The notes below the pieces were generated by a model. It made no database searches. It had not been told where the DNA came from and saw nothing but the letters and a program-made list of their open reading frames with translations. A program made the translations under genes and the position numbers. From the NCBI GenBank assembly GCA_964574595.1, contig CAZNOF010000003.1:80280-144279 (forward strand): a DNA stretch of 64,000 nt, read 5' to 3'. Of this stretch, positions 10,177 to 32,402 are shown piece after piece; the first letter of the stretch is position 1, and the number at the start of each line of letters is the position of its first letter. The stretch is from an uncultured Pseudomonadales bacterium (GTDB taxonomy: Bacteria > Patescibacteriota > Microgenomatia > UBA1400 > PJMF01).

Positions 10177-10358
10177 GAGGTTTCTAACCTTTCTTTACTT
10201 TTTAAGGACAAATGAGACGAATTTGACTGATTCAGCAAATGAATCACTTCGACATACTTGAGCAAAGTAATTATACCACTTTGAGCTATTTTAATGCATT
10301 TTATACACACAAATGTAAATACTTCTTTATTACTTATAAAAATGATAAAATCACAGCT

Positions 10359-11654
10359 ATGTCAAAACTAGTGAAGCGTATGCGGCAAGCATTTGCGTTG
10401 TTTTTTTCAATGTTTTTTATTGTTGCGCCTACTTTAGCTAGTTCTCAAGCATATGCAGCGGTTTGTGGAGAGCAAACAGCATCTGGTATGCCTACTTTTT
10501 GTTCTATTGGGTACCACACGGAACCCACTGTGAACATGTCTTGTCCCTTCCCATCGGCGTGTTATCAAGGTTCAAACCCCGCACCAGCGGAGTGTTCTTG
10601 GAGTGTGAATTCCAGTGGTAAACCAACCTATTGCTGGTCTTTTAAAGAATCAGATCCCAACATGCCTTTAATTAAGAATAGTCATCTGCGATTTAACTGT
10701 GTTAATCGCGGAAATATTAATGACTGTGGTGGCATTTTGGCCCAGATGGGTATGCAAACCACTGGTTTTAACTACCAAATCGTTGACCCAAATACCCTAC
10801 CTGGAAATACTCAACCTGGAGACTGTGGTCCAAACTGTCACTTTCAATGTGTCAGCATGGATTACAACCAAGCGAACATTCGCGACTTTATGATGGCTCA
10901 AGGAGTAAGACAGTGTTTACAAACAATAAGTGCTGGCGCAGGTGCAGCCGGTGGAATTGTTGCCGGGCTTGGAGCGGGATTTGCTTTAGTTCCTCTAGCG
11001 GCTGGTAATAGTCTCACAATGCTTGGAACGGTAGTTACTGCGAACGCTGCAGAACTTGGCCTTTCAGGGGCGGCTGGGAAAGCTGCACTCGATCAAGCTA
11101 AAACATGCTTAGCTACATTAAATGGTACAAACGGCCAGAGCTTGCTCGACTGGAATGGATCTGTCACCTCAGCCGACGGTACACAAACCTACTGCAACGC
11201 CAAAACCACATTAACAATGAACACAGCATTCAACGTGATTGGAAATACCACTACTCCTCCAACCACCAATCCAGATAGTCCCTTTAGTTTATGTAATCAA
11301 ATTCCAGATGCTACGCAAAAGCAAAGTTGCCAAACCTGCAACTCTTCAAACGGCGGTGATGAGACAAACATAAAAGCCATTTGGACCTCAATCGGTTGTA
11401 TTCCTACTACTAGTGAAGGAATTGTTGGTTCGTTGGTCAAACTTGGTTTAGGAATTGCTGGAACTGCAGCAGTGCTGATGATTCTCGCTGGCGGCTTTAT
11501 GTTGAGTACTTCTCAAGGTGATACCAAACGAGTTGGTGAAGCCAAAGAGCTCGTCACCTCTGCGGTAATCGGCTTACTCTTTATCATCTTCTCTGTTACT
11601 CTGTTACAATTCATTGGAGTAAAACTGTTCCATATTCCAGGATTTGGGTCGTAA
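10359..11654 (+). CDS. Cys-rich secreted protein with C-terminal T4SS-pilin-like (TrbC/VirB2-like) membrane domain
   Basis: The start was chosen at MSKLVKRM, which has a signal-peptide-like N-terminus; the ORF-track start at 10239 is less likely. The mature part has more than 25 Cys. The C-terminus IAGTAAVLMILAGGFMLSTSQGDTKRVGEAKELVTSAVIGLLFI matches the motif shared by the tandem pilin paralogs at 16.7-20.5 kb. Confidence 0.5.
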   Translation: MSKLVKRMRQAFALFFSMFFIVAPTLASSQAYAAVCGEQTASGMPTFCSIGYHTEPTVNMSCPFPSACYQGSNPAPAECSWSVNSSGKPTYCWSFKESDPNMPLIKNSHLRFNCVNRGNINDCGGILAQMGMQTTGFNYQIVDPNTLPGNTQPGDCGPNCHFQCVSMDYNQANIRDFMMAQGVRQCLQTISAGAGAAGGIVAGLGAGFALVPLAAGNSLTMLGTVVTANAAELGLSGAAGKAALDQAKTCLATLNGTNGQSLLDWNGSVTSADGTQTYCNAKTTLTMNTAFNVIGNTTTPPTTNPDSPFSLCNQIPDATQKQSCQTCNSSNGGDETNIKAIWTSIGCIPTTSEGIVGSLVKLGLGIAGTAAVLMILAGGFMLSTSQGDTKRVGEAKELVTSAVIGLLFIIFSVTLLQFIGVKLFHIPGFGS

Positions 11655-11994
11655 TATGATTCACAAATTATTAGCAGGCGGAGCACCAGCCGGACCAGAT
11701 TTTAATAAGTTTAACCCATTGGTTATTGACCAATCTCCAAACGCGAATACATTTAATAGCCCCGGTGGTGTTATTACCAAAGCTCTCGACTACGCCTTCC
11801 CCATTGCCGGCATGATTCTTTTTGTAATGATTTTATGGGGTGGTTTTGAGATGCTGTCTGGCGCTACTTCTGCCAAAGGCAAAGATGCTGGCAAACAACG
11901 AATCACTGCGGCAGTGATTGGTTTTGTCTTACTGTTCGTTTCTTACTGGATGGCTAAGCTGCTTGAGCTCATTTTTGGCATTAAGATTTTTTAA
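11644..11994 (+). CDS. T4SS-pilin-like small membrane protein (paralog)
   Basis: It carries the same motif as the other pilin paralogs: MILWGGFEMLSGATSAKGKDAGKQRITAAVIGFVLL. Its start overlaps the upstream gene; an alternative start exists at 11656. Confidence 0.5.
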   Translation: MGRNMIHKLLAGGAPAGPDFNKFNPLVIDQSPNANTFNSPGGVITKALDYAFPIAGMILFVMILWGGFEMLSGATSAKGKDAGKQRITAAVIGFVLLFVSYWMAKLLELIFGIKIF

Positions 11995-13543: not shown

Positions 13544-13894
13544 TTACTTTTTAGCGGCGTGCCCCAATACAGAAGAAAATCTGAAGAATAAGTACAGCAA
13601 CAAAATTTGCCAGTAAATACAGAAAAAGGTGATCCAATCGGATAAAAACACTAATCCATCACAACCCCAAAAGTTGGACACACTGCAAGAAAAGAAGATT
13701 CTCACCAGTGGCACCACTGCAAATCGCCAACCAACTGTCAAAACTGCCAAGACCAAACTCGGAAACAACGTCATCCAAGAGAAGACTTTTTCTTGCTGCA
13801 AACTCTGCATCGTCTGGTAAGGATGCAGCAACAAGCCCTGTCCAATCTCTCCAACAGAGTACACGAGCGAAGTAGTAAGGTGTTTGTAGTTCAT
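13544..13894 (-). CDS. Membrane protein, unknown function
   Basis: The 116-aa ORF is hydrophobic and Trp/Phe-rich. Confidence 0.3.
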   Translation of the reverse strand: MNYKHLTTSLVYSVGEIGQGLLLHPYQTMQSLQQEKVFSWMTLFPSLVLAVLTVGWRFAVVPLVRIFFSCSVSNFWGCDGLVFLSDWITFFCIYWQILLLYLFFRFSSVLGHAAKK

Positions 13895-14019
13895 CAGACT
13901 AGATTGTACCAGGTGATATAATATGTATCAAATTACTCATTACTTGCTTTACATTGCTGAATCAGATCTAAAGTGATGAGTAATTCATCTTTAATAAGTT
14001 AAGAAAGGTTGTGAATACG

Positions 14020-14778
14020 ATGAAGAAGTTCTGGATCATTTTCGTCCCAGTCCGAGAAAGTGGTGGATTTGGAGGGTGGGTACTTCTTGTTATCCTGATC
14101 ATTATTGGGATTGTAGGTATCGTGAATCAGAGTGGCTCTGGTCGAGGTCCCGCTCGTCAAGTAATTGTTACAGCAACTCCGACCATTTATGTTACTTTAG
14201 ACCCACAGGCTCAGGCAATTGAGGCAACAAAGACATTTATCAGTTCATACTCAGTCGTACAGACAATTACATCAAGAAGGCCACCTGAATGTATTGAAAC
14301 TTCTAAAATGAAGGGAATACTAACTCAGGTCGCATTTAACGCAACTGATAACTATTTTTCATTGGTCACTGAAGACGGTAACAAAACATATCTTCTCAGC
14401 TGGTTTTTCAACTCCAGAACTGGGCTCAACCAAGAGTATCATTGTGGCAATGATGTTCAAGAATTCAATGGCAAAATAACATACGTGCGTTACGGATACT
14501 TCGATCAATCAGGCACAGCAAGCATCCTTCACAAAGTAGTAAGAACCGACAATCAGGGTATCGCAACTTATGATTTCTCTAGCATGACCAACGACAACAG
14601 TCCTGTGACATTGAGGTCAGATGATCAAAGCAAATGGTATAGTGCATCTAACTACCAAGTTACTCAGACAATAAACTGGCTAGGAACCACAAATGGGATT
14701 GCATACGTTTCACCAGAAAAACGATTCCTCGTATACCAAACAACCAATGGGGAAATTAATATTGCCTATCAGCAATAA
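14020..14778 (+). CDS. Membrane-anchored extracytoplasmic protein, paralog A (unknown function)
   Basis: The ATG at 14020 (MKKFWIIF...) follows the RBS AAGAAAGG. The N-terminal TM is similar to the 15805 gene. An extended -10 GTGATATAAT lies at 13914-13922. Confidence 0.45.
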   Translation: MKKFWIIFVPVRESGGFGGWVLLVILIIIGIVGIVNQSGSGRGPARQVIVTATPTIYVTLDPQAQAIEATKTFISSYSVVQTITSRRPPECIETSKMKGILTQVAFNATDNYFSLVTEDGNKTYLLSWFFNSRTGLNQEYHCGNDVQEFNGKITYVRYGYFDQSGTASILHKVVRTDNQGIATYDFSSMTNDNSPVTLRSDDQSKWYSASNYQVTQTINWLGTTNGIAYVSPEKRFLVYQTTNGEINIAYQQ

Positions 14779-14851
14779 ATTTAAACTCGAAGCTTAACTT
14801 AACAAAACGCCAGGTGGTACCCTGGCGTTTTTCATATCTATTCTTAAAAAC

Positions 14852-15049
14852 TTACTTGAGGAAAATTCGCACGATCAATGTTGTAATCCCCGATAAAATC
14901 AGTAATGTCTGCCAAGGATACTTACCTATTAAGGAAGTAATTGGATCAATTTGCTTTGGTAGCCAACGGACGGTATTTAGCGGTGCCTGCAAATTAGCTT
15001 GATGTTGCAACTCATTTAAAAATTGCTGTTGTGATTTGGATTTGGTCAT
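14852..15049 (-). CDS. Putative membrane-anchored anti-sigma factor (small single-TM protein translationally coupled to the ECF sigma gene)
   Basis: It has a 4-nt ATGA overlap with the upstream sigma gene. The C-terminal TM is LLILSGITTLIVRIFL. Confidence 0.4.
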   Translation of the reverse strand: MTKSKSQQQFLNELQHQANLQAPLNTVRWLPKQIDPITSLIGKYPWQTLLILSGITTLIVRIFLK

Positions 15050-15573
15050 GTGCTTTCTACTCCATACAACTCTCTAAACTCATCTCTAGCTCTGAATAAA
15101 ATAGACTCCACTGACTTGACGGAACGACCGGTTTCTTTGGCAATTTGGGCAACTTTCTTCTTATCTAAGTACTTCATTAGCAGAATTTCTTTATATTCTT
15201 GATTCATATGCTGCAGAACTGAAATGACGTGTTGGGAGATTTCTTCTGGATGCTGAACTGGTTCGGTGGTTAAAAACTCAGACAGAGGCAGGGCTAAAAT
15301 AAACTTTTTGGCATACCGCTTCCGGTAATAATCGGCAACTTCATGGTGTGCCACATGCATCATCCAAGTCCAAATACTTGATTCACCACGGAAAAGTGGC
15401 AGCGATTTCAAACAACTTAAGAAAATATCCTGGGTGACTTCTTCTGCATCTGAGGCTGTCACCACTTTTTTGAGAACATGCCGATACATCTTTTGATGAA
15501 ACAGCTCATACCACTCCCGCACCGCTCTAGGAGAAGCCTGCTTTAACTGCTGGAGCAAAAGCTCTTCATTCAT
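15046..15573 (-). CDS. ECF-type RNA polymerase sigma-70 family factor
   Basis: Sigma region 2 reads DIFLSCLKSLPLFRGESSIWTWMMHVAHHEVADYYRKR. Region 4 has an HTH (KKKVAQIAKETGRSVKSVESILFRAR). Confidence 0.85.
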   Translation of the reverse strand: MNEELLLQQLKQASPRAVREWYELFHQKMYRHVLKKVVTASDAEEVTQDIFLSCLKSLPLFRGESSIWTWMMHVAHHEVADYYRKRYAKKFILALPLSEFLTTEPVQHPEEISQHVISVLQHMNQEYKEILLMKYLDKKKVAQIAKETGRSVKSVESILFRARDEFRELYGVEST

Positions 15574-15804: not shown

Positions 15805-16653
15805 ATGCGTAAGTTTCTGGTAATTCTCATTCCGATCGAAGCTGGACCGCAAGATCCGGGCTGCCTATTAAGAACAATCTTCGGAATCGTGATTTGGGGA
15901 GCATTCTTTGTAATACTGTTTTCAGGGATGTTCAGTGGAAATCAAAATAACAGAAATTCTCAACTGGACAACACCCATCTATCTGTCCCAACATCTATCC
16001 CAACATTAGTTCCATTTGGAGCTCGGATCATTTCAAATCAGGTAAGGACGATAGTTGGAGTACCTGATATCGAAGTGACTGATTTCCAAGGACTACAATA
16101 CAATCTGAAAGAATCAGTAGCCTCAGAAGTTTCTTGGTCTCCAAATGGATCAAAGATATTGTATCGCGGAGAAGAAAACTCAATTCGTGTCGTGAATATA
16201 GATGGAACAGGAGACCATCAAGTTGTACATTCTACGCCAGGAGATATTCTGAGTTTTACCTGGAATGATGACGAACACGTACTCTTCAAGCATTGCCCTT
16301 TCGATCAGCAGCACCAGGTATTTAATTGTGAATTGCAGTACTCAAATAGCGTAAGCTTAGATGGTAGAAGCGTTGCCCCAGACGGTTTTACTAGCAGCGC
16401 TGTAAACTTTAACGACAACAGGGTCTCTTTCAAAAACCATACTCCCCTAAATAACTTCGGAAGAGTAGCTTTTGGACCATATGGCTTTGATTCTGTAGAA
16501 TGTCTATATTGTCACTTCTTGGCTTTTGTTACTTGGAACGAATCTCCTGGACAAACAGGAAATCTGTATGTCGCAAGGGATGTTTATATCAAAGATCCCA
16601 ATCCTAGTACAACTAGCACTGGAACGTATCTATCAATTAACGGAATAAACTAG
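15805..16653 (+). CDS. Membrane-anchored protein with TolB/PD40-like beta-propeller repeats, paralog B of the 14020 gene at its N-terminus
   Basis: SWSPNGSKILYRGEENSIRVVNIDGTGDHQVV is PD40-like. It has an RBS AAGTTAAGAGAGGTT and an extended -10 TGTGATATAAT at 15685-15695. A terminator hairpin follows at 16673-16705. Confidence 0.45.
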   Translation: MRKFLVILIPIEAGPQDPGCLLRTIFGIVIWGAFFVILFSGMFSGNQNNRNSQLDNTHLSVPTSIPTLVPFGARIISNQVRTIVGVPDIEVTDFQGLQYNLKESVASEVSWSPNGSKILYRGEENSIRVVNIDGTGDHQVVHSTPGDILSFTWNDDEHVLFKHCPFDQQHQVFNCELQYSNSVSLDGRSVAPDGFTSSAVNFNDNRVSFKNHTPLNNFGRVAFGPYGFDSVECLYCHFLAFVTWNESPGQTGNLYVARDVYIKDPNPSTTSTGTYLSINGIN

Positions 16654-16672: not shown

Positions 16673-16705
16673 AAAAATGCCTCTATAAACGAGGCATTTT
16701 TATTA
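16673..16705 (+). terminator. Rho-independent terminator after the 15805 gene, preceding the pilin array
   Basis: The stem aaaatgcctc/gaggcatttt has a tataaac loop and is followed by a T-run. Confidence 0.6.
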
Positions 16706-16757
16706 ACTAATTAGTGCTTCTTGGCATAAAAAAAATAAAATGTAGTATACTAACTAG

Positions 16758-17174
16758 ATGAAGAAATCTGGGATTAGTTTTATTATTATCTCGATTACAG
16801 CAATTTTTCTTGCCCTTTCTTTTTTTGTACCTCAAACAGTATTGGCAGCTAACACAAATTGTGACCCAACCTCAGCAGGCTTGAAGATTGGAGACTGTTT
16901 ACAACTTAGCGAGGGTCAACCAGTTAGTAGTGTTTATGACAAACCAGCTGTTCTCGTTAACCTCCTCACCAGTAATATCTTCATTGCTGGCGGAATTATT
17001 CTCTTAGTGATGATCATTTACGCTGGCTTTCAATTCATTACTGGCGGAGCTAAAGGCATGGAACAGGCCAAAAGTGTGCTTGGTACAGCTTTAATGGGCT
17101 TTATTATTATGTTTATGGCTTACTGGATCTTGAGAATTATCAAAATTATAACTGGAGCAAACATCCTTTTTTAG
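16758..17174 (+). CDS. T4SS-pilin-like (TrbC/VirB2-like) small membrane protein, tandem paralog 1
   Basis: A signal-like N-terminal TM is followed by two TM helices with the family motif AGGIILLVMIIYAGFQFITGGAKGMEQAKSVLGTALMGFII. Confidence 0.6.
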   Translation: MKKSGISFIIISITAIFLALSFFVPQTVLAANTNCDPTSAGLKIGDCLQLSEGQPVSSVYDKPAVLVNLLTSNIFIAGGIILLVMIIYAGFQFITGGAKGMEQAKSVLGTALMGFIIMFMAYWILRIIKIITGANILF

Positions 17175-17192
17175 ATAGTGTAAAATAGTCAT

Positions 17193-17582
17193 ATGATTTT
17201 AACTTTACTAGCAGACAGCGTATTTGGAACAATTAATCCACCGGCCGGTGTAAAAGAATTTGATGCCTCGCCAGGAGCAAATGGTCTTGGAATCATCGTC
17301 TTCTTCTCCAACTTAATCAAAATCGGTACCGTTATTGCCGGAATTTTAGTCTTCGTCAACATTTTGATGGCAGGCTTTACCTACGTGAGTGCTGCTGGAG
17401 ATTCAGGCACGCCAGATAAAGTTAAAGATCAAATTCTGCACAGCGTGATTGGTTTAGCCATTATCGTCTTGTCTTACTTAATCATTGCCTTAATTAGTTT
17501 CGTCCTCTTCAAAGATCCAGGATATATCTTAAATCCAACCATTACCGGGCCAGGAACATCAACTGCGCCAACAGGACCATAA
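17193..17582 (+). CDS. T4SS-pilin-like small membrane protein, tandem paralog 2
   Basis: Motif: MAGFTYVSAAGDSGTPDKVKDQILHSVIGLAIIVLSY. Confidence 0.6.
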   Translation: MILTLLADSVFGTINPPAGVKEFDASPGANGLGIIVFFSNLIKIGTVIAGILVFVNILMAGFTYVSAAGDSGTPDKVKDQILHSVIGLAIIVLSYLIIALISFVLFKDPGYILNPTITGPGTSTAPTGP

Positions 17583-17965
17583 TGACATCAAGATTAATTG
17601 CTGCAGAAACCAAACTCGGCACCTTTGAACCACCATCTACCATTTTAAAATCTTCAGATTTAACATCTGGAGCAGGTGTAACCACCAAGTTAGAAGCCGT
17701 TCTCTCTGAATTCCTAGGTATCGTCACCATCGTGGCCAGTATTGCTTTGATTTTCTACTTTATTATCGGCACTTTAAACTGGATTACCTCAAATGGTGAT
17801 TCCGGTAAAATTCAAAAAGCTCGTGAAGCCATGATTCAATCCGTATCTGGAATGGTCCTCGTTGTCGCTGCCTACGGCTTGATTGGCTTAATTGGCAACT
17901 TCTTAGGTCTTCACATTCTTAACCCAGGCACTGCTCTCTTAAATATCGTGAATGGAACGCCATGA
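17582..17965 (+). CDS. T4SS-pilin-like small membrane protein, tandem paralog 3
   Basis: It is start/stop-coupled to the previous gene (ATGA overlap). Motif: IIGTLNWITSNGDSGKIQKAREAMIQSVSGMVLV. Confidence 0.6.
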   Translation: MTSRLIAAETKLGTFEPPSTILKSSDLTSGAGVTTKLEAVLSEFLGIVTIVASIALIFYFIIGTLNWITSNGDSGKIQKAREAMIQSVSGMVLVVAAYGLIGLIGNFLGLHILNPGTALLNIVNGTP

Positions 17966-18399
17966 AAAAACAGTTTTTAAAAACTCTTACCGTTACAACT
18001 TCTTTTATTGGAAGTTCTGTCATTTTGCCAGCTCAAATCTTTGCAGCCGGTATCACCAACCCAGCCATTGGCTCATTGGGTGATAGTTCAACCAAAGCAG
18101 AAAGTGGTAGTACCTTTACTGGCTACTTCGTCACGATTTGGAGAGCCTTAATTTTTGTGGGCGTTTTAGCCTTACTCTTCAACTTACTCAATGGTGGGCT
18201 TGACTGGATTTTAGCTGGTGGTGAAGCCGCCAAAATTCAAAAAGGCCGTGACAAAATGGTCCAATCAGTTATTGGTATGGTCATTTTAGCCGGATCATTC
18301 GTAATTATTTCTTACGTCAGTAGTCTCTTATTTAACTTTGACTTGCTGAACTTAACTGTTCCTACTGTAGGGAGCGCAGGCCCAACCGGTACTCCATAA
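17962..18399 (+). CDS. T4SS-pilin-like small membrane protein, tandem paralog 4
   Basis: It has an ATGA overlap with paralog 3. Motif: LNGGLDWILAGGEAAKIQKGRDKMVQSVIGMVIL. Confidence 0.6.
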   Translation: MKKQFLKTLTVTTSFIGSSVILPAQIFAAGITNPAIGSLGDSSTKAESGSTFTGYFVTIWRALIFVGVLALLFNLLNGGLDWILAGGEAAKIQKGRDKMVQSVIGMVILAGSFVIISYVSSLLFNFDLLNLTVPTVGSAGPTGTP

Positions 18400-18406
18400 C
18401 ATATCT

Positions 18407-18796
18407 ATGAAACACACTCTCTTAGCTCAAACGCTGAATTTTCGACAAGAAGCCACTACACAGCAACTTCCTAATGCCGATGGCAACTTAGGATCTGCTT
18501 TAAGTACCGTGATTACTGCTGTGATGGCAATTGGTGTTTTAGCCGCCTTCATCTACATCGTGATGGGTGCTTTTGAGTGGATCACATCTGGTGGTGAAAA
18601 AGGCAAAGTTGAGTCAGCCAGAAATAAGATCACTGGGGCAATTATTGGCTTAATCGTCTTAGCATCTGTCTTTGTAATCATTCTATTAGTTCAAAACTTC
18701 TTGGGCGTGCAAGTGTTTACACTTGGTGGCGCAGCTACAACAACTACCAATGGTGGTGGCGGCGGTGGTTCCAGAATGGTACCAACCCAGTTCTAA
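18407..18796 (+). CDS. T4SS-pilin-like small membrane protein, tandem paralog 5
   Basis: Motif: VMGAFEWITSGGEKGKVESARNKITGAIIGLIVL. It has a Gly-rich C-terminus. Confidence 0.6.
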   Translation: MKHTLLAQTLNFRQEATTQQLPNADGNLGSALSTVITAVMAIGVLAAFIYIVMGAFEWITSGGEKGKVESARNKITGAIIGLIVLASVFVIILLVQNFLGVQVFTLGGAATTTTNGGGGGGSRMVPTQF

Positions 18797-18843
18797 GAAT
18801 TTTTATTAATAAAGAATGAATAAATAGTAGATCTCGAGTGGGC

Positions 18844-18871
18844 TTGACAGTTGCTAGAGGACTACTATAAT
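18844..18871 (+). promoter_or_regulatory. Near-consensus sigma70 promoter for pilin paralog 6
   Basis: TTGACA at 18844-18849 is followed by a 16-nt spacer and TATAAT at 18866-18871. The RBS AAGGAG and the GTG at 18902 lie downstream. Confidence 0.6.
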
Positions 18872-18901
18872 TAAATTACAGTAATTCAAAAAGGAGCCTT
18901 T

Positions 18902-19297
18902 GTGCAAATTTCATCCAGTATTCAACGAAAAATCGGTGTCGCCACCGGAGTCGCAGGTGCATTGTTAGCGAGTGTATCACCAGCTTTTGCTGCTACCACC
19001 ACTCAACAAATCAACTTGACCCCAAACACACCAGGCTTCTTCACCAACGCCAATGACTTAATTTCTAAATTACTTTCCATCGTGATGGTGATCGGCGTGA
19101 TCTTAGTGTTCGCCTTCTTAGTACTCGGTGGTATTGAGTACATCACTTCTGGTGGTGAAAAAGGTAAAACAGAAGCAGCTCGTAACAAAATTACTTCCGC
19201 TGTTATTGGTTTGATCATCTTAGCTTCTTCATATGCTATCTTGACTATCGTCTTAGGATTCTTAGGTACCAACACTACAGATATCTTGAAATTCTAA
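18902..19297 (+). CDS. T4SS-pilin-like small membrane protein, tandem paralog 6; candidate major pilin because it has its own promoter and terminator
   Basis: A GTG start is preceded by AAGGAG (18891-18896). Motif: VLGGIEYITSGGEKGKTEAARNKITSAVIGLIIL. A near-consensus sigma70 promoter sits at 18844-18871 and a perfect 12-bp-arm terminator at 19317-19350. Confidence 0.6.
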   Translation: MQISSSIQRKIGVATGVAGALLASVSPAFAATTTQQINLTPNTPGFFTNANDLISKLLSIVMVIGVILVFAFLVLGGIEYITSGGEKGKTEAARNKITSAVIGLIILASSYAILTIVLGFLGTNTTDILKF

Positions 19298-19316
19298 AAA
19301 TTAAATGAATATGTTA

Positions 19317-19350
19317 CCCCCTCCGAGGCTCCTCGGAGGGGGTTTTTGTT
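19317..19350 (+). terminator. Strong rho-independent terminator after pilin paralog 6
   Basis: A perfect 12-nt inverted repeat, ccccctccgagg/cctcggaggggg, is followed by TTTTTGTTT. Confidence 0.75.
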
Positions 19351-19391
19351 TCTGATCACTGTCTGGTATAATTTCTGATTATTGAGCCTTT

Positions 19392-19994
19392 ATGAAATCA
19401 ACGTTTCTCGCCTTCTGTTTACTTGTTCTTACTTTTTTAGGTAGCGCTCATCTTGTTAATCAAGTTCAAGCAGCCGGCGATGTGGTCATTGCTACACAGT
19501 CAGGCGCGACTTACTTAACCACAACGACCACAACCACCACAGTAGAGACTGTTACCACGACACCAACACCGATCGCTACTCTGTCTGGCACGCCAATTCC
19601 AATTGCTCAGGGACACGTTTTCTTGCCACCTGGATTTTTCCCAAGTGCTAATGCCTTAGTAAATGATCTATTTAAAGTGATCATGATCATTGCTGTAATT
19701 TTGGTGTTTGCGTATTTGGTGCTTGGTGGCTTCCAGTACATTACTTCCGGAGGAGAAAAAGGCAAAACGGAAGCAGCTAGAAATAAAATGATTTCTGCAA
19801 TCGTAGGATTAATCATTGTGGCTTCTTCATATGCCATTTTAACAATTGTCCTTAACTTTATTGGTTACAGAGACGTAACTGGCTTTTTACAAGTTGGCCC
19901 AACTGTTACCCCAACACCAGTCGCCCCGCTCGTCTCACCATCACCTCTGGTTACACCTACGCCTAGTTCCTTACTCAAACAACTGATAAAATAG
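19392..19994 (+). CDS. T4SS-pilin-like membrane protein, tandem paralog 7, with poly-Thr insert and Pro/Thr-rich C-terminal extension
   Basis: Motif: VLGGFQYITSGGEKGKTEAARNKMISAIVGLIIV. It has a TTTTTTTVETVTTTPTP linker and a PTVTPTPVAPLVSPSP tail. Confidence 0.6.
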   Translation: MKSTFLAFCLLVLTFLGSAHLVNQVQAAGDVVIATQSGATYLTTTTTTTTVETVTTTPTPIATLSGTPIPIAQGHVFLPPGFFPSANALVNDLFKVIMIIAVILVFAYLVLGGFQYITSGGEKGKTEAARNKMISAIVGLIIVASSYAILTIVLNFIGYRDVTGFLQVGPTVTPTPVAPLVSPSPLVTPTPSSLLKQLIK

Positions 19995-20004
19995 AAAAGC
20001 ACCC

Positions 20005-20466
20005 ATGAAAAAGCTCATTTTAGACACAGTCCGTATCTCCACTTTGCTTTTACCTCTCTTGATCTTGATTTTTGCCCCAACCGTCTCTGCGCAAACAGTA
20101 CAGTGGACTGGTGTATGTGTAGGCAAATCAATGACATCAGGTACTTCTGGCGGAAATGTAGATGCTGGCGATGTAGCTACAATACAAGGCTTTCAATGTT
20201 TAATTGGTAATGTCTTAATGATCTCAATTACCGGAATTGGTTTAATTGGCTTTGTGATGTTTATTGTCGGCGCCTTTCATTACATGTTGTCTGGTGGCAA
20301 TGCCAAAGGCACTGAGCAAGCCAAGAACACGATTACCTATGCCGTGATCGGTCTAGTTGTAGCGTTATCTGCGTTCATTATTTTGAACTTGGTTTCTAGC
20401 TTCACAGGCGTGAAGAGTATCTTGAACTTCACCATCTCACCTCCAAGTACCACCCCACTGAACTAA
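20005..20466 (+). CDS. T4SS-pilin-like small membrane protein, tandem paralog 8
   Basis: Motif: IVGAFHYMLSGGNAKGTEQAKNTITYAVIGLVVA. Confidence 0.6.
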   Translation: MKKLILDTVRISTLLLPLLILIFAPTVSAQTVQWTGVCVGKSMTSGTSGGNVDAGDVATIQGFQCLIGNVLMISITGIGLIGFVMFIVGAFHYMLSGGNAKGTEQAKNTITYAVIGLVVALSAFIILNLVSSFTGVKSILNFTISPPSTTPLN

Positions 20467-20510
20467 TTCTCCAAAACAAAGTCGTCTCGACTCGCGATAT
20501 AATACGGATC

Positions 20511-23500
20511 ATGATGTTTTATCGCCAGAGACGCTTCGTCATCTTTAGCTTGGTTTTGTTTCTGTCTGTGCTCTTGCTGGCCAAATTTGCTTCCCCTTTA
20601 TATTTAAAAGCTCAATCTTCTGCGACATCAGCGTTGGCGGCCTTAGCAGATCCTGGTGGCGACGGTGGCAGCAATGTGGGTACCAATATCGGTGTGGGAG
20701 ATGTTACCGCACAAGTAGACATCATTGATAACGTCATCGCTCGAAACGGGGCGGGAGCAGGCTTTCCAGTTACGGTGTTACTCTATGAAAACAGTATGCC
20801 AGATGACGTGAAGAAAATTGCTGATGCCATGAAGAGACACAGCTTTTTCCCGATTGTGCGTATCGACCATATTTGTGACCACTCCGTTTCAGATTCACAG
20901 CAAATCGTGAGCATCGTCAGACAAGAATTTGGAGCTGACACGGTCATCGCTTTTGGCAATGAGATCAACAACCAAGAAATTGAGTGTAAAGATTGGGCAA
21001 AGTATGAGCAAAATTACCGCGCCGTTCAAAGCGGCATCACTGCCCCATCTGCTATCGACTTCTACAATGGAAATCCGGCATTTAAGTTTGATAAATTGCC
21101 TGGTAGCTTACAAGGTTTGATTAATGGCTCAAGCATCAGAGCTGCCAACGCCTACGGCTGTGTGGGTACGAAAGCAGCAGGTTGTAATGATGGTGCTATG
21201 GGCACATACACCACTGGTTTAACTGGCACAGATGGCAAGAAACTCTATGTCACTGAGTTCAGTCTTTCTCCAGAAGGAAGAGTGGCCGATGCACCAGATA
21301 CCGATCTCACCAAAGTACTCTACTTCATTAAAAAATTTGCTCCTCAAGTTCGAGCAGAGAAAATCACTCCTTTAATTAGAAACGTGTGTAATGGCGACGG
21401 TGAGTGGCTGATTTACGTCAAAGGCCAAGTTTTCACCATGCACGGCCAAAACGTCACCAAGAGTTGTGCCGGCACCAAAGTTCCTTTCTACGAATTCAAC
21501 ATTCAGCGCGAAACAAGTCAAAATGTGGTCAATAATTTTTACGATGAGTACTCTGTGGCCTGCTTACCAAAAGAGGAATACACGCTTGGCTTTGAAAACG
21601 ATCCAGCCAAATGTGGTGATCCAAATTCTGGCTTGATCTGTCCGATTGATTGGAAAAGCTGGAATATCCCTGGCAAATTAAAAATGACGGCAGATGGGAA
21701 GACCTATGGTCTTTTCAGAAACCAATCGGCTGTAGAAGCACGATCAGGCGGAAACACGCCTGCAAAAAGAGGTGAATCTGTAGAGGCGTTAATTTCTCAA
21801 CCTAACCCAGACGCGCCGACATCTACTGCAGTTCCAACCACCACGACTTCAGATAAATCAAATGCCTCTCTCAAACAAGCACCTATGTATAATCTGACCA
21901 CTTTGTCACAGCAGTGCAGCTTTGTGGTGGATAAATTAAAAGCTGTCCACGAACTATGTAAGCCTGAAAATCGAGTTGAAACATATAAAACTGCAGGAGA
22001 AGTCTCACCTCAGGACTCCACTGAAGATTGTGGTCTGAACACCAATATTCCAAGTACCAGCAAACCGTATGATCAGGAAAGCATGCTTGCGGCTTTCCAA
22101 AGTAAAAATATGACCTGCGAAGATTTAGCAGATTCACAAAAACCAGAAGATAGATCATTTCTGTCAGACTTACTTAAAGTGAATGTCTCAATGGAAACAG
22201 CCTACCGTCCGGCCTTTATCGTAGCGGTTACTACATTTGATGCTCCAAATAGTACGGACAACGTCACGACCCACACATCAGATGACGCCGGCGTAGAACC
22301 AGTCACTGGTCAAAAATTCCAAGTCATTGACTATCTAGAAGTGAAAGTACCGGCACTTGCTTCTGACTTCTTGCCAACCAAGAGTCCAGAACACAGCTCT
22401 TCTCTCATCAATCCAGACAGAAATAATTACCGCGACCCAATGCAACTGACGGCGGACGTGCTGAGAACCAGTGAAGACCAATCAGATGTGTTCCAACAGG
22501 AAATAGATCAACGAAAGGTCCTCCGTGAATTTGAAAAGCGCGGTTCAATAAATGGCAGCATTATTGGCGACAACGGGAACATGCCGATCTTCTGTAATGT
22601 AGGCGGCAAGCTGTATGCCAACTGTGACATCCCAGCCCAAACGGGAGACAATTATGTAGACCAGGTCCCACCAGCACTCGTTAAGTTCATCAACGCCAGC
22701 GCGACCGTTCAAAACCTAGGAGATTGGGATTCTTTGCCCTGCAACGCCCGAGAAGTTGACATTTATGGTGAAGAAAAAAACAAAGCTCGAATTGCAGAAC
22801 AAGGAAAAACAATCTTAGCCCAACTTAAAGCCCAACCAATTGGTCCATATCAAAAAAGAACTGAAATATCCACAAATATCTCAGTTAAGGTCAAAGATAT
22901 TACTAAAGGTGGCAATATCACCACTCACACCGAGCTATACTTCGTAACGCCACAACGTTACGCAATGCAGTACGCGCAAAATAGCTTCTTATCTTTCTTA
23001 ACCACAGGTGTGAAACAAGGCTTCATTGATCCTCAAGTCAAAGCTGACGTGTATAACCCAACCAAATTTAGTCCATTATTAAAGAGTGAATTGGCTAAAA
23101 CCTTAACTGGCCGTGAAGTGAAAACTGGCGCCTACAGACTTGAAGCTGGCACTCTGGCTCCCACTGCTCCAGGAGCCACCCCAGTACCAACCACCAACAA
23201 GAAAATGGTTGATTTATTTGGCTTAATTAATGACACCAGTGACTTTGCCTACACTCAAAGCATTTTCTGGCGAGTAGCTGGCCAAGTAGCTAGCTTACCA
23301 AGTCGAATGCTAGCCTTAGTTAACTTACGCGATGGCTCACCGATGTATGACTACACCCGCGGATGTACTGGAAATTACGCCACAGATGACTGGTTTACTG
23401 GCAACTGTCTGAGAGCACCAGACAACGCTCAGGCAGCTTCTCCATCTGCCGGAACAACGGGCAACGTCTGTATTGAAACAAAGATTGATGACCCCGCGGT

Positions 23501-24014
23501 GCTGGCCGATTATGCTGCCAAGTTAAAGGACTATTTGGGCCAAGCCTCTACTCTAGACTTATGGACCAGATACTTTGCTGGATACCTGCCAGGAGCAACG
23601 CCTTACTTGTTTAGTGTGAATGATGCTCGTTGTGACGCTTCACAACCCTGCTATGACAAAGTCATTGATACAGCAGTGGCGCACAAGATCAATCCATACT
23701 TAGCAATTGCGATTGCCCTAAACGAAACTGGTGGTTTCCGCAGTAACCAGGCTGACGCTTCCGGGCCTCACTTTGGCTGTGGTGTGAACTTAGATCCAAA
23801 TGGCCCAACTATTGGCTTTGGCACTATTCCAAGCAAGTTAAACTGTATGGTCGGGGCGTTTGATAACTATGAAAACACCGGCTTAGATGCCAATGCCGCA
23901 CTGACTAAATATGGATATGCCAATGGATTTAAGAACCAGAACCTCACCAAAATTATAGGCATTATCAGCCATCAAACATACGCAGGAAACTGTACTGGAT
24001 CAGTTGAAAACTAA
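20511..24014 (+). CDS. Large secreted protein (1167 aa) with C-terminal lysozyme-like / lytic-transglycosylase-like domain (VirB1-analogous cell-wall hydrolase candidate)
   Basis: It has an N-terminal signal/TM. The C-terminal segment at about 23650-23830, VIDTAVAHKINPYLAIAIALNETGGFRSNQ, resembles the catalytic Glu-containing helix of lysozyme-like transglycosylases. The rest of the protein is unassigned. Confidence 0.5.
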   Translation: MMFYRQRRFVIFSLVLFLSVLLLAKFASPLYLKAQSSATSALAALADPGGDGGSNVGTNIGVGDVTAQVDIIDNVIARNGAGAGFPVTVLLYENSMPDDVKKIADAMKRHSFFPIVRIDHICDHSVSDSQQIVSIVRQEFGADTVIAFGNEINNQEIECKDWAKYEQNYRAVQSGITAPSAIDFYNGNPAFKFDKLPGSLQGLINGSSIRAANAYGCVGTKAAGCNDGAMGTYTTGLTGTDGKKLYVTEFSLSPEGRVADAPDTDLTKVLYFIKKFAPQVRAEKITPLIRNVCNGDGEWLIYVKGQVFTMHGQNVTKSCAGTKVPFYEFNIQRETSQNVVNNFYDEYSVACLPKEEYTLGFENDPAKCGDPNSGLICPIDWKSWNIPGKLKMTADGKTYGLFRNQSAVEARSGGNTPAKRGESVEALISQPNPDAPTSTAVPTTTTSDKSNASLKQAPMYNLTTLSQQCSFVVDKLKAVHELCKPENRVETYKTAGEVSPQDSTEDCGLNTNIPSTSKPYDQESMLAAFQSKNMTCEDLADSQKPEDRSFLSDLLKVNVSMETAYRPAFIVAVTTFDAPNSTDNVTTHTSDDAGVEPVTGQKFQVIDYLEVKVPALASDFLPTKSPEHSSSLINPDRNNYRDPMQLTADVLRTSEDQSDVFQQEIDQRKVLREFEKRGSINGSIIGDNGNMPIFCNVGGKLYANCDIPAQTGDNYVDQVPPALVKFINASATVQNLGDWDSLPCNAREVDIYGEEKNKARIAEQGKTILAQLKAQPIGPYQKRTEISTNISVKVKDITKGGNITTHTELYFVTPQRYAMQYAQNSFLSFLTTGVKQGFIDPQVKADVYNPTKFSPLLKSELAKTLTGREVKTGAYRLEAGTLAPTAPGATPVPTTNKKMVDLFGLINDTSDFAYTQSIFWRVAGQVASLPSRMLALVNLRDGSPMYDYTRGCTGNYATDDWFTGNCLRAPDNAQAASPSAGTTGNVCIETKIDDPAVLADYAAKLKDYLGQASTLDLWTRYFAGYLPGATPYLFSVNDARCDASQPCYDKVIDTAVAHKINPYLAIAIALNETGGFRSNQADASGPHFGCGVNLDPNGPTIGFGTIPSKLNCMVGAFDNYENTGLDANAALTKYGYANGFKNQNLTKIIGIISHQTYAGNCTGSVEN

Positions 24015-24914: not shown

Positions 24915-24999
24915 CTCTATCTCACTAATTCAAGGGGGAAGGAGTATGTAGCAAATTACTCCTTTGACCAGACATAAAATAGACTGTAGAATATGAGTT

Positions 25000-26655
25000 G
25001 TGAAAAAATGGTTCTCGATACTTTTTCTATCCCTCTTTGTGCTCATTTCTTTTGCTCGCCCAGTTAGTACGTTTGCTCAAGTAACGTGTCCAGTAGGAAC
25101 ACCTCCCGGTCAAATTGGTCAGAATCCAACTTGTTCCGGTTGTGCACCAGGATTAATTGTCGGTGCTGCTAGTAAATGTATGACTCCGGCGCAACTTCAA
25201 ACAAGTCAATGGACCATCCCAGTCATGCAACAAATTGACAAGGGCCGAGACGATCAAGAAGCAAACAACCCAAACTTGCGTGGAACTGGTTTCGATATCT
25301 TATCAACAGTGGTCGGTGGTTTAGGACAAATTGTTTTAACGGGCTCAGATAAAAAAGGTACTTTAACCGGTGACTCTGGTGTAACCAGTGCTGCCAAAAT
25401 GATTGGTATGCTCTACGTTCCTCCAGCCACTTCTCAAGAGTACATTGCCGATGTTTTGAAAGACGCCGGCGTGGCAACCCCAGCCTATGCGCAAGGATTA
25501 GGATTTTCAGCATTAGCTCCAGTACTTGAGACCTGGAAAATTTTCCGAACAGTCGCCTACTTCTTCTATGTGGTCATCTTCTTAATTATTGGATTCATGA
25601 TTATGTTCCGCCAAAAAATTGGGAGTCAAACCGTCGTAACTGTTCAACAGGCATTACCAAAACTCTTAATCTCTTTGATCGCCGTGACTTTCTCATACGC
25701 TATTGCTGGTTTCATGATTGAGGTGATGTATTTGGCGATGTCATTCATCGTCAACGTATTTGCCTCTGGCACATTGGGTGCAGAAAAAATTAATGGCCAA
25801 ACCATTCAGCAGTTCGGATCAAACAGTAATATCTTCAACATCGCTGGCATTATTATCAGTGGTGGCTTCCAGAACACGGTCAGTAATTCCGTGGGCAACA
25901 TGGTGAACGGTGTCTTAGGCATTCAACCAGATCAAGCGGGCGCTATCTTAGGCAGTATCACCGGCTTAGCAGCTGTGGTGGTCTTTGCCATTGCCCTCCT
26001 CTTCAGTCTCTTTAGATTATTCTTTGAACTTTTGAAAACCTACATCACGCTCATCATTATGATCGTGACCGCACCAGTTGCTTTGATGCTTGGCGCTTTA
26101 CCAGGCAACAACGCTTTTTCAAGTTGGTTGAAAGGGTTGTTCTTTAACTTAGCCGTCTTCCCAACTGTGTTATTAACTATCGTGATGGCCTTCTTGCTCC
26201 AAACCAGTATTTCAAATAACGGTGGCTTCTTACCTCCATACATTGGTGGCGTAGGAACAGCCGGATCAGTCGCCCCTCTCTTAGGATTGGGTGTCTTACT
26301 CGTTATTCCAGATATCGTCACTAAAGTGAAAAAGATGGCTCCAGCAGGACCATTTGATGAGTTTGCCAATAAAGCTGCAGCCGCTGTCAAACAAGGTTGG
26401 AAAGGTGGAGAGCTGGTTCCAGGACTTGGCTTTACAGACACCAGAAAACTTCCACTCGGTGGCTTAAGTGGTCAAAACGTTGTAACCAAACCATTTACAT
26501 CTGGATACGGTTTAGCCAAGGATTTGACTGGCAAAGTGGCGGCTGGTGGAGTTGGCAATGTCTTGCCATTTACTAGACGTGTTACACCTCCTCAAAAGAC
26601 AACTATTGATGAGAATAAGAATATGCCTGATCCAAGTCGAAGAAATAGAGTCTAA
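25000..26655 (+). CDS. Polytopic membrane protein, VirB6/TrbL-like T4SS channel component candidate
   Basis: It has a signal peptide, a Cys-containing extracytoplasmic N-domain, then at least six hydrophobic helices (FFYVVIFLIIGFMIMF, LISLIAVTFSYAIAGFMIEVMYLAMSFIV, and others). The topology is typical of VirB6/TrbL. Confidence 0.5.
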   Translation: MKKWFSILFLSLFVLISFARPVSTFAQVTCPVGTPPGQIGQNPTCSGCAPGLIVGAASKCMTPAQLQTSQWTIPVMQQIDKGRDDQEANNPNLRGTGFDILSTVVGGLGQIVLTGSDKKGTLTGDSGVTSAAKMIGMLYVPPATSQEYIADVLKDAGVATPAYAQGLGFSALAPVLETWKIFRTVAYFFYVVIFLIIGFMIMFRQKIGSQTVVTVQQALPKLLISLIAVTFSYAIAGFMIEVMYLAMSFIVNVFASGTLGAEKINGQTIQQFGSNSNIFNIAGIIISGGFQNTVSNSVGNMVNGVLGIQPDQAGAILGSITGLAAVVVFAIALLFSLFRLFFELLKTYITLIIMIVTAPVALMLGALPGNNAFSSWLKGLFFNLAVFPTVLLTIVMAFLLQTSISNNGGFLPPYIGGVGTAGSVAPLLGLGVLLVIPDIVTKVKKMAPAGPFDEFANKAAAAVKQGWKGGELVPGLGFTDTRKLPLGGLSGQNVVTKPFTSGYGLAKDLTGKVAAGGVGNVLPFTRRVTPPQKTTIDENKNMPDPSRRNRV

Positions 26656-26954: not shown

Positions 26955-29900
26955 TTACTTCTTCTTCTGTTCAAACTTGCGGTAGTTCATCAATCCAGCA
27001 GCCACCAGCAAGTCATTTACACGACGCTCAGAAAGCAATCCAAAACCAGTATACTTACCTTCAGGAATCTCTTGACCGGTAATCCTTCCCATGACATCAG
27101 TTCTCGGTAATGTTGATTGATTATAGTAGACTTGTCTCCAGCCACCACGATAATTGAGGTATGCTTCATGACTTAACATTTCCTTAATTGCCTTAATGTT
27201 CTTTTCTGGGTTTTCTCGCCACTTGTTAAACTTGGCACCATCTTTACGAATTTCCATTAATTCGGCTATGAAAATAATTTCCATTTGATATTGAATTAAG
27301 GCCGTACACTGATCGTCAACTTTATCATCCATGACTCTAGCTAAACCACCTGATAAGAAGTCATATTGCTGTTTGTTTATTTCATTATGTTTCAGTAGAT
27401 GACCCAAAGCGTGATCCGCTTGATTGCCCATTAAACACATTTTTGGTGTAAACATTTCAACGTACTCAATGGCTCTAGGATCTGGGATCGAAGTATCTCC
27501 AGCTTTAATTCTATGAATCAGGTCCTCCTCAATCGCATTTCCGGCAGCATCTAAATAATGACCATCGTGATCTCTTTTAAATGTTCTTAATGGTAAGCCT
27601 CTAGTAATGCGCTCATCTGCTCTGGCAGGATTAGTCCAAATTTTCATTAACTCGTCGTACTCAGTCTTGCTTTTTAATGGCCATTTATAGTCGTTATTCC
27701 AGTAGTAGAAAGCAGCTCGCTCTAAACCCGTCAATTTCTCTGCTTGATGTTTATTAAATGTGACAAAAGTAGATTTATCCATTCTTGGTACTTCTGAAGC
27801 AACAGATAACCAGTCCAAGCCAGTTCCCTTGGTAATTGCCTCAAGCATCTTTTCTGAGTGGCCTACAGCCTCTTCTTCTTTCTTAGCAATACCTTCTGGA
27901 AAACCATTGGTTGGGATGGCATCAGATGGGACATTCCCGTCAAGCAACCAACGCAAGAATGTCCGTCTTTGCCCATCTAGCGCAGCCATGGCTTGTGGAT
28001 GCTTCGTGGCATCGTAGGCAAATTTTTGAGGATATCTTTGTAATGGTGGTTTGTACAGTTCGTGGAAGAAAGGAATGGTCAACTCTAAGCCTGGAGAACC
28101 AGAGTTTCTACCTTCTTCTTTGACGTACTTGGCACGGGTATCACCGGTGTTTACCAAATAACTCAATTGATAGAAGTCTCGACGCACTTTCTCGTCAAAG
28201 ATACCTCTTTGCATAGCACCTTCAATATAAATACCTGAGAACTTAGCAATTGCGTCAAAGAAGGTACTATTTGGATTTGCACCACGTAAGTGATCACTAA
28301 TTTTTTTAATAGCCTCTGTAGGATTAAATAAAATATCGTACTTACTGTCTGGATTATCAGCTAGAATTGTTTTGTTATAGACCGCCAAAACAGCTTCTCG
28401 TGTGTAATCACCAATTGTCTTTAACTGGGCATGATAAAAGGTTCCTGGTCGCTCTGGGATAACATCCGGGATAGCCGGAAAACCAGCCGTCGGCTTCTCA
28501 CGGATTCCTGGAATTGGAATAACTTTATCTTTAATTTTGAATGGTTCAAGCGCAATTACTCCTGTATATACAGCTTCAGGGGTACTGACAGCTCCAGTGA
28601 ATTCAGCTTTTCGCTGACGATACTCATACATTCTTTTTGAGGCCAGAAATACTTGAGCCATCGTGTAAAGATCGTCGTTAAGAATAGCACCTTCAGGCAT
28701 GTTTCCGACAATAGCCGTGAAGTCCACTGGCGTATTTGCCACACCTGGGAATGACATTTTTCTAGGATCAAAACCAGACTCTTGATATAAGTGTCCCGGT
28801 CCCACGTCATTATCCATTTGGCGGAAGTACCAGCCCCACATTAATTGTTTCAGCTCTTCATTGCCAAGAGCCGCAATTTGATCTTCTCTAAAGCCAACTT
28901 CTGGAGAACTCAAGAAACGTCTCATTAATCCATTTGGAATACGACTGGCTTCTTTATCTTCAGGAATACCTGGAGTTCTTGGTGGACCACCAACTCCACC
29001 AGGAGGTACTGTAGCACCGGAATATTTATTCAATCGCTTCAACCATTCCAGGTACTGATTCATGTACAGAGTAAATTCATCTAAATATTTTTGATTATCA
29101 GAGTCTTTCAAATCAAAAGATTCTTGAAGTTGTAGGAGTTGTCGATTAAAAAATTGACTAAACCGATCTTTGAAATCTCTCAAAAACTCACGGTCTTCAT
29201 CACGCAGACTGCCAGGCATGTCAGTACCAGCATCTTTAGCCGCAGCCATGATACGACCCAGGACTTCTGCTTCTTGAATTTCCTGGTCATAACTCCCGAT
29301 CATCATTTGAATAAGGCCATCCATGTCTGCTGGGAAGTCATCATCTAGCAAACTTGGTCTCAAAAAGTCTCGGCGACGAGCATCTTGGCTGCCACCTAAG
29401 CGTGCCACGTTATTTTCATGAAGAAGTTCTCGAATCAAGTGCTCTAATTTTTGAGCTTCTGCAAAGAGTGGCGACTTACTGTCAGCATCTTCTCGCTGAA
29501 TGGTAGCGTATCGCAAAATCTCATTTACACGCTCTTCTTCACCTTGATCAAGTGGTTTTCGACCACCTTTAGTAGAGACTTTTTTGGCGTATGCTCGCAA
29601 CTCGTTTGTAATAGAGTCTGCTTTGTTTGGTTCTTTAAATAAAGTTGTATCAATTCTATCTATTGCCGGTTCCAAGTCATGTTCGCCATCCTCATAAGGA
29701 TTTTTCAACGGATCGATATCTTCTAACCCGCTTCGATTATAGGCATCAGTAGCACCTTGAATAATTCCGTCAATTCTATTTCTTTCGGCTGGGATTGATT
29801 GAGCTAAAATGTGCCCTTCATCAGTGATCTGGCGTAGGGCTTGTTGAGCAGCTTTTTTTTGAGGTTCGGCATACTCCACTTTTGGACTATTAATTGCTCT

Positions 29901-30248: not shown

Positions 30249-30264
30249 ATGAGTCTAACTTAAT

Positions 30265-32262: not shown

Positions 32263-32402
32263 AAATTCCTTGAATCTTCTCTGGCTTATTTTACATCTTC
32301 AGGTCATAGAAAAAAACAGACCAATTGTCTCTCATTATTATACGGTGATAACGAGTGAAGTTACAAGGAGTTATCAGGTGTTTTTATAGCACACGGACAC
32401 CA

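Follow-up and report, generated by a model that had tools for sequence, protein, structure and literature searches.

A conserved promoter, ribosome-binding site and terminator mark one paralog as the probable principal member of a VirB2/TrbC-like array in Patescibacteria

The 64-kb stretch of DNA analyzed here (hereafter the window; contig CAZNOF010000003.1, positions 80,280 to 144,279 of the forward strand) comes from a host that probably belongs to the Microgenomatia group of Patescibacteria. It carries a tandem array of eight small genes (16758–20466), numbered P1 to P8 in order, and our subject is the sixth of them, P6 (18902–19297, + strand), which encodes a 131-amino-acid precursor identified from its open reading frame (ORF), Pfam matches and an AlphaFold2 (AF2) model as a VirB2/TrbC-like pilin of a type IV secretion system (T4SS). 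The original prediction had counted six paralogs and proposed the sixth, on the strength of its own expression signals, as the major structural pilin; the array turned out to be longer by two. All its small ORFs match PF18895 (T4SS_pilin), P3, P5, P6, P7 and P8 above the cut-off and P1, P2 and P4 below it, and the tandem paralogs are 16–28% identical to paralog 1. As had been anticipated, the five upstream members form a tight operon on the + strand (P1 16758–17174, P2 17193–17582, P3 17582–17965, P4 17962–18399 and P5 18407–18796), with gaps of +18, −1, −4 and +7 nt, weak or absent ribosome-binding sites and no signals comparable with those of P6. They are followed beyond P6 by P7 (19392–19994, 200 amino acids) and P8 (20005–20466, 153 amino acids), both on the + strand and recognized from their ORFs and Pfam matches.

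The hexamers, spacing, placement and conservation of the element upstream of P6 are those expected of a sigma-70-type promoter (18844–18871, + strand). The −35 hexamer TTGACA (18844–18849) and the −10 hexamer TATAAT (18866–18871) are separated by 16 nt, and the element ends 30 nt ahead of the start codon, placing the putative transcription start near 18878. To put this match in context, we searched both strands for perfect TTGACA-N16–18-TATAAT promoters and obtained the chance level from 100 dinucleotide shuffles. The P6 promoter, found where the original prediction had placed it, was the sole 12/12 match in the window on either strand, the runners-up being one site at 11/12 and then sites at 10/12, and the shuffles gave a mean of 0.02 matches per window, with at least one match in 2 of the 100. 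The strong ribosome-binding site that had been claimed is likewise present: a Shine–Dalgarno (SD) sequence AAGGAG at 18891–18896 (+ strand), 5 nt ahead of the GTG start at 18902, forms an anti-SD duplex of −7.9 kcal/mol, the second strongest among the 49 genes used for comparisons within the window. The median duplex energy over the window genes is −2.9 kcal/mol, most of them having no strong SD. Ahead of the −35 hexamer, at 18788–18830, the window has about 20 nt of extra A+T-rich sequence that is missing in the three closest related loci and could act as an UP-like element.

The hairpin and U-run past P6 have the form of an intrinsic (Rho-independent) terminator (19316–19352, + strand). The hairpin itself (19316–19343) starts 18 nt past the P6 stop codon and reads ACCCCCTCCGAG-GCTC-CTCGGAGGGGGT, giving 12 perfect pairs, nine of them G–C, and a 4-nt loop, and is followed by TTTTTGTTT. 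The perfect 12-bp arms and T-run thus agree with the original description, and the site is the strongest of the terminator-like sites in the window, its stem being the longest and the most G+C-rich. The predicted RNA fold has an energy of −27.7 kcal/mol (z = −5.3), which none of 200 shuffles reached. Rfam and tRNA scans of the window gave no match.

We compared these signals with those of three close syntenic loci (L001, L003 and L004), two more distant loci (L005 and L006) and an additional 80 loci from species-representative genomes. An alignment of the P5–P6 spacer shows the promoter hexamers to be identical in the three close loci, with the spacer between them diverging in L004, and the SD region AAAAAGGA to be identical across all four loci. 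The promoters in L005 and L006 are TTGACG-18-TACAAT and TTGACG-17-TATAAT, respectively, and both loci also have an AAAGGA-type ribosome-binding site and their own hairpin plus T-run. L001 and L003–L006 all retain the terminator hairpin, although the sequences of stem and loop differ. Four of the 10 consensus stem pairs show double-sided changes across six loci, and in the P6–P7 spacer of the close loci, the inner stems and loops vary beside an invariant GGGGGTTTTTGTTT.

For a broader view, the pilin genes of 86–87 loci from related species were scored according to where they lie with respect to the P6 ortholog; promoters were compared in equal 180-nt windows per array position, and the fold of the 80 nt past the stop codon served as a proxy for a terminator. 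A promoter match of at least 10/12 was found at the P6 ortholog in 63 of 87 loci, with the consensus TTGAC(T/G/A)-N18-TATAAT. In the equal windows, matches of at least 10/12 were present at 76% of P6 orthologs vs. 0–17% at other array positions, and matches of at least 11/12 at 58% vs. 0–6%. The SD duplex energy averaged −6.8 kcal/mol for P6 orthologs and −0.8 to −3.1 kcal/mol elsewhere in the array. Downstream folds of −15 kcal/mol or lower were found in 90% of 86 loci at P6 vs. 8–37% at other positions, the mean fold being −23.0 kcal/mol past P6 orthologs vs. −8 to −13 kcal/mol past the others. A strict detector of hairpins with T-runs recovered terminators in 36 of the 87 loci, with 32 distinct hairpin sequences among the 36 hits; those that it missed were for the most part genuine terminators whose stems contain bulges or take in A/T tracts, and because of this low recovery, the fold-energy measure was used as well.

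Promoter and terminator matches may also lie unused, as products of chance or because the RNA polymerase concerned has other preferences, in which case P6 would be expressed like its neighbors as part of a long operon. Indeed, when the region is scanned generically for promoters and terminators, it gives no more sites than shuffled sequence, and our scoring uses the TTGACA/TATAAT consensus, which may not be the preference of Patescibacteria sigma factors. Yet a perfect promoter is too rare by chance, as the shuffles indicate, and the signals recur at the P6 ortholog in 76–90% of 86 loci although spacers and hairpin sequences vary. SD strength and codon bias independently pick out the same gene, and we regard unused signals as very improbable.

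A bias toward C-ending and GGT-type codons is a classical mark of selection on highly translated genes. We measured it as C/(C+T) at twofold NNY sites and found P6 to have the highest value of the 49 genes (0.71; mean 0.37, standard deviation 0.09), with ordinary G+C content at third codon positions (GC3) and a preference for GGT and CGT. Where P6 and P7 share a residue, C in P6 is matched by T in P7 13 times and the reverse is seen 4 times, and P6 has GGT and CGT where P7 has GGA, GGC or AGA. Across 86 loci, C/(C+T) was 0.48 for P6 orthologs vs. 0.35 for the other paralogs and higher for P6 in 74 of them (Wilcoxon p ~1e-12); GC3 did not differ, and the share of GGT among glycine codons was greater by 0.19. 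The protein itself is well conserved: the identity of P6 to the window copy is 84–86% in L001, 74–77% in L003 and 65–66% in L004, other array members ranging from 27 to 80%, and P6 ranks first in the array in both L001 and L003, while in L004 it is second. In L005 and L006, the identity is 54 and 61%, respectively. The helical hairpin core is nearly invariant over 30 orthologs, and the core of the ortholog group can be written as GGIE[WY]ITSGG[DE]KGKTE[SA]ARNKIT.

As promoter, SD, hairpin and codon bias occur regularly only at the P6 ortholog among the 87 loci, and as P6 is the first or second most conserved member, its high and largely independent expression is well supported by these sequence features. 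The original prediction had singled out P6 from the local signals; with promoter, SD, terminator and codon bias compared over 86–87 loci, the gene is the leading candidate for the array's abundant subunit.

The description of P6 as monocistronic needs qualification. We found no terminator between P5 and P6, either in the window or across the scanned loci, and transcripts of P1–P5 should therefore run through P6 and end at its terminator, leaving as monocistronic only the transcripts that would start from the internal promoter. Similarly, P6 alone has a near-consensus promoter with 12/12 matches, but it is not the only array member preceded by promoter-like elements. P1 has a −10 box TATACT at 16746–16751, 6 nt ahead of its ATG, and in the relatives, GTATAAT is conserved 6–7 nt before the P1 ATG, with the placement kept in L001, L003 and L004. 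This suggests that the P1 transcript is leaderless. About 10 of the 49 window genes have a −10-like hexamer ending 5–9 nt ahead of the start and no SD, among them the sites 16746–16760, 20493–20513 and 24985–25002 and those upstream of 32403–33734 (−), 56726–58978 (−), 13544–13894 (−) and 2506–3600 (−), and leaderless mRNAs look common in this genome.

The other promoter-like element, the extended −10-like TGGTATAAT (19364–19372, + strand), lies between the P6 terminator and P7. CTGnTATAAT precedes P7 in all four close loci (as TATACT in L003), L006 has TGATATAAT, and TGnTAnnAT is found ahead of the gene at the P7 position in ~38% of loci. P7 has a core 72% identical to that of P6, extended by a Thr-rich segment at the N terminus and a Pro/Thr-rich one at the C terminus, and uses nonpreferred codons. 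Long forms of this type (~185–213 amino acids) share contigs with P6 orthologs, and P7 could be a decorated subunit that coassembles with P6, for example at a tip or base or spanning the wall. Two additional pilin-domain genes lie outside the tandem array, one for 471 amino acids with a C-terminal PF18895 domain (10239–11654, +) and an overlapping one for 116 amino acids (11644–11994, +); L001 and L003 retain the pair. Gene conversion, an invertible promoter and a cassette system were considered too and rejected, as a search for repeats over the array gave no long ones, either direct or inverted.

The first 30 residues of P6 resemble a Sec signal peptide; they contain R9 and K10 as well as a hydrophobic stretch, and AFA occupies positions 28–30. 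The N terminus reads MQISSSIQRKIGVATGVAGALLASVSPAFA followed by ATTT, and cleavage is predicted after residue 30 (nucleotide 18991); the AxA-type signal-peptidase-I site is kept in the ortholog alignment (A4). The AF2 model, built on the 30-sequence ortholog alignment, consists of the signal-peptide helix, helix 1 at residues 50–82 (19049–19147) and helix 2 at residues 87–120 (19160–19261), connected by a TSGG turn and then a basic stretch EKGKTEAARNK. Its mean pLDDT is 76.6, with block means of 82–95 over residues 51–120 and above 90 for residues 61–110. As modeled, P6 thus has the Sec leader, two hydrophobic helices and short basic or polar loop of TrbC/VirB2 pilins. Its match to PF18895 is the best in the array (39.0 bits vs. 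the cut-off of 26.6, E = 8.9e-10, profile positions 5–70 of 71), and the same family matches 30 of 30 P6 orthologs. The TrbC/VirB2 family PF04956 matches 10 of the 30 at E <= 0.01, with a best E of 3.7e-8.

The term "pilin" of the original prediction holds in the sense of a T4SS pilin but does not hold for a type IV pilus. Judged by its sequence, P6 is a VirB2/TrbC-like type IV secretion pilin: the class III signal peptide and G-F/M-xxx-E motif of type IV pilus pilins are both absent, and the only match related to type IV pili, to PilE_C (E = 0.024), is far below the cut-off. We also rejected a proteolipid resembling the ATP-synthase c subunit, to which the fold gave weak matches, as helix 2 has no midmembrane carboxylate and there is no Pfam support. 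The homologs of P6 all come from Patescibacteria metagenome-assembled genomes (MAGs) labeled Pacebacteria, Woesebacteria or Microgenomates. Some of the array-bearing loci (L048, which is CP011212.1, L043 and many of L010–L086) are titled "candidate division TM6," "Vitreimonas sp." or "uncultured Pseudomonadales"; these titles probably reflect mislabeled or misbinned MAGs rather than a true taxonomic spread.

The signal peptide would also suit a secreted protein, and P6 and the rest of the array could be Sec-secreted effectors or factors inserting into the host membrane rather than structural components. There is a precedent in the TM7x literature, where six small signal-peptide proteins beside the T4SS are described as "putative effector genes" (PMC7427843). 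However, two long hydrophobic helices dominate the mature P6, which after Sec insertion would remain in the membrane of the producing cell. Effectors are usually variable, whereas the P6 core is almost invariant over 30 orthologs, and the sequence matches pilin models. We find an effector role improbable.

A more substantial rival accepts that P6 is abundant but assumes no filament, the protein being a two-helix envelope component, a part of the T4SS channel or stalk or something with another role, and a "pilin" by remote similarity only. The expression evidence is equally compatible with this, and our sequence and fold searches of the Protein Data Bank (PDB) do not link P6 specifically to solved pilins. 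Furthermore, Gram-positive T4SSs are generally without VirB2 and a pilus according to PMC12102498 and PMC12857230, in which no observed Patescibacteria T4SS pilus is reported. On the other side, the TrbC/VirB2 model does match a third of the orthologs, down to the E of 3.7e-8 given above, and P6 follows the plan of the conjugative pilins in its signal peptide, its pair of hydrophobic helices and its basic loop. A polymer needs a large excess of one subunit over the seven others, but a channel of fixed stoichiometry does not obviously do so. We consider an abundant but nonfilamentous P6 unlikely, although the possibility has some weight.

Several observations weigh against P6 as the major pilin and against its high expression. 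The canonical genes virB2, trbC and traA are embedded in long operons and are not known to carry a consensus promoter and terminator of their own; what is seen at P6 is therefore no established hallmark of T4SS pilins. The match of P6 itself to PF04956, while nearly full-length, is below the threshold (16.7 bits vs. the cut-off of 27.9, E = 0.0087). When the ortholog profile was searched against all PDB chains, the matches were limited to nonsignificant ones to CD20 (E > 2), with no solved pilin among them. For the AF2 model, Foldseek found nothing in the PDB at E <= 0.001, the top matches being unrelated generic helical hairpins; such an outcome is expected because the two-helix fold is so simple, and it does not separate a pilin from other two-helix proteins. 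The start codon of P6 is GTG, usually weaker than the ATG used by 73 of the 87 orthologs. Promoter, SD, terminator and codon bias are all sequence-based proxies of expression, and translational selection as the source of codon bias is not established in slow-growing Patescibacteria. Finally, the reviews consulted go no further than to call a T4SS pilus of Patescibacteria a "possibility," none having been demonstrated (PMC12102498, PMC12857230).

Taking both sides together, we consider it reasonably probable that P6 is the main and highly expressed member of a VirB2/TrbC-like array belonging to a chromosomal, monoderm-type T4SS of Patescibacteria. That it serves as the major structural pilin is the reading which fits the evidence best, if unproven, and the designation of the other copies as "minor pilins," made in the original prediction, is purely inferential. 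In the mechanism that we propose, a weak and probably leaderless promoter would transcribe P1–P5, whose ribosome-binding sites are poor or absent, with the transcript continuing into P6. The near-consensus promoter would add, in large excess, a short P6 mRNA of ~470 nt with a strong SD and preferred codons. The P6 terminator would stop both transcripts and insulate P7, P8 and the large hydrolase-like gene downstream, which would restart from −10 elements of their own, P7 from the one between the terminator and its start. P6 would end up in large stoichiometric excess over the other paralogs, which is what a polymerizing major pilin needs. Sec export and signal-peptidase cleavage after AFA would yield a mature two-helix membrane hairpin of ~100 amino acids with a basic loop. 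From a membrane pool of these subunits, the T4SS would polymerize a filament or conduit, and the low-abundance paralogs may serve as minor, initiating, tip or host-specificity subunits. For transcript and protein levels, cleavage, pilus polymerization and the roles of the other paralogs alike, we infer these steps from the DNA and its relatives.

The arrangement may reflect a three-part transcription plan that consists of a weakly translated and probably leaderless P1–P5 operon, the promoter–SD–terminator cassette of P6 and a separate restart for P7, P8 and the hydrolase-like gene. As a generalization, Microgenomatia-type monoderms could build a VirB2-type pilus or conduit whose bulk subunit is the P6 group and whose stoichiometry is set by this conserved plan; we put this forward tentatively, with doubts slightly outweighing our confidence.

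The remainder of the window provides the context of a T4SS. The core genes lie ~24 kb downstream of the pilin array, not adjacent to it, and consist of a PrgI/VirB3-like gene (41213–42571, +; PF12666), an ORF without assignment (42574–43542, +) and a VirB4 ATPase gene (43554–45704, +; PF19044 with E = 5.9e-25, and PF03135), directly followed by dnaA and dnaN (Bac_DnaA and DNA_pol3_beta). No relaxase or coupling protein was recognized in the window. Between the array and VirB4, we found a large gene for 1167 amino acids (20511–24014, +) with a weak C-terminal glucosaminidase match and its own GATATAAT 7 nt ahead of the ATG, and a gene for a 551-amino-acid multipass membrane protein without a Pfam match (25000–26655, +), possibly VirB6-like. 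Further large genes in 26955–40184 encode proteins of 1097, 665, 443 and 613 amino acids without a Pfam match and one of 1464 amino acids with an M23 peptidase domain. The large genes of this interval probably encode T4SS-associated cell-wall and channel components.

On the other side of the array, an extracytoplasmic function (ECF)-type sigma factor gene (15046–15573, −) lies within a unit (13544–15573, −) that also holds small downstream ORFs and is divergent from the pilin genes. A sigma-factor unit diverges from the array in every locus examined (L001 2795–3854, L003 2877–3918, L004 2196–3282, L005 2823–3900 and L006 3017–3771), with two small downstream ORFs in five of the six loci and one called in L006. 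In L001, L003 and L004, it is found together with the eight-gene array and the same large downstream genes. The divergent ECF sigma factor suggests regulated expression of the P1–P5 operon. In the window, the sigma factor is flanked by two membrane-anchored genes without a Pfam match (14011–14778, +, and 15805–16653, +), absent from L001, L003 and L004. The resemblance of their products is limited to the N termini (E = 0.009), and the second has the strongest SD of the window (−9.5 kcal/mol) and a hairpin with a T-run near 16677–16710 after the gene.

Patescibacteria depend on host cells, and whether a Gram-positive-like T4SS can give a pilus is among the questions raised in PMC12857230. Knowing which paralog of up to eleven is abundant would guide the choice of the protein to tag and to seek in filaments, proteomes and cryo-EM maps. 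The conserved P6 signals in ~86 species amount to a falsifiable prediction for a whole class of uncultivated bacteria, and the P6 promoter is a prospective strong native expression element for organisms that are hard to engineer. If the reading of P6 as the major pilin is true, the protein would be the building block of the first pilus from a monoderm-type T4SS, a structure thought to underlie the obligate epibiotic lifestyle.

The closest known systems are the VirB2-like arrays of Patescibacteria themselves. Quinonero-Coronel et al. (2025; PMC12102498) describe 441 arrays of 2–11 genes with ~25% mean identity, abundant in Microgenomatia, and a layout with VirB4 and PrgI/VirB3 close to dnaA. 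In other work, a T4SS and a series of pilins are essential in the one genetically tractable species, Southlakia epibionticum (Wang et al. 2023; PMC10633639), and Saccharibacteria have an array of small Sec-signal proteins (McLean et al. 2020; PMC7427843). In Minisyncoccaceae MAGs, genes of the T4SS pilin family are among the five most expressed signal-peptide genes, although these are not assignable to individual pilin genes (PMC10936435). Our locus shares with the published arrays the tandem, divergent PF18895 proteins, the chromosomal location, the VirB4 and PrgI/VirB3 genes near dnaA and the absence of a recognized relaxase or coupling protein, but its pilin array is ~24 kb from virB4 rather than beside it. 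As far as the available text goes, the papers treat the members as variable paralogs, possibly for host-range versatility, and single out none, whereas here one ortholog is much more conserved and alone has a conserved strong promoter, SD, terminator and codon bias. The literature searched neither names a principal array subunit nor describes a per-gene promoter and terminator cassette. The system being already described, what is new here is a refinement, namely a comparative and testable indication of which paralog is abundant.

Expansions of VirB2 paralogs are also known from Bartonella, Anaplasma and Rickettsia (cited in PMC12102498), likewise as divergent tandem copies beside one T4SS and read as surface variation or host adaptation. 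Those are diderm intracellular pathogens; here, by contrast, there are no long DNA repeats or invertible elements, and one copy is strongly conserved. The host class of P6 consists of monoderms with an MPF-FATA-like T4SS that is normally without VirB2, according to PMC12102498. With VirB2 (the Agrobacterium T-pilin), TrbC of RP4 and TraA of F, P6 shares a small precursor with a long Sec leader, a hydrophobic hairpin and a basic inter-helix region, as well as a genome region containing a VirB4 ATPase and, for its orthologs, matches to PF04956. It differs in being itself below the PF04956 threshold and in having no known filament, phospholipid partner or cyclization.

In type IV pili (pilA/pilE) and chaperone-usher pili (papA/fimA), the major subunit has its own strong promoter and a terminator directly after the gene. 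The expression logic at P6 appears to be the same by analogy, the polymerizing subunit being uncoupled from low-copy subunits in a way that would set the stoichiometry. The families and the assembly machines are unrelated, however, and P6 has an AxA site and lacks both the class III motif (G/FTLIE) and the usher-type Ig fold.

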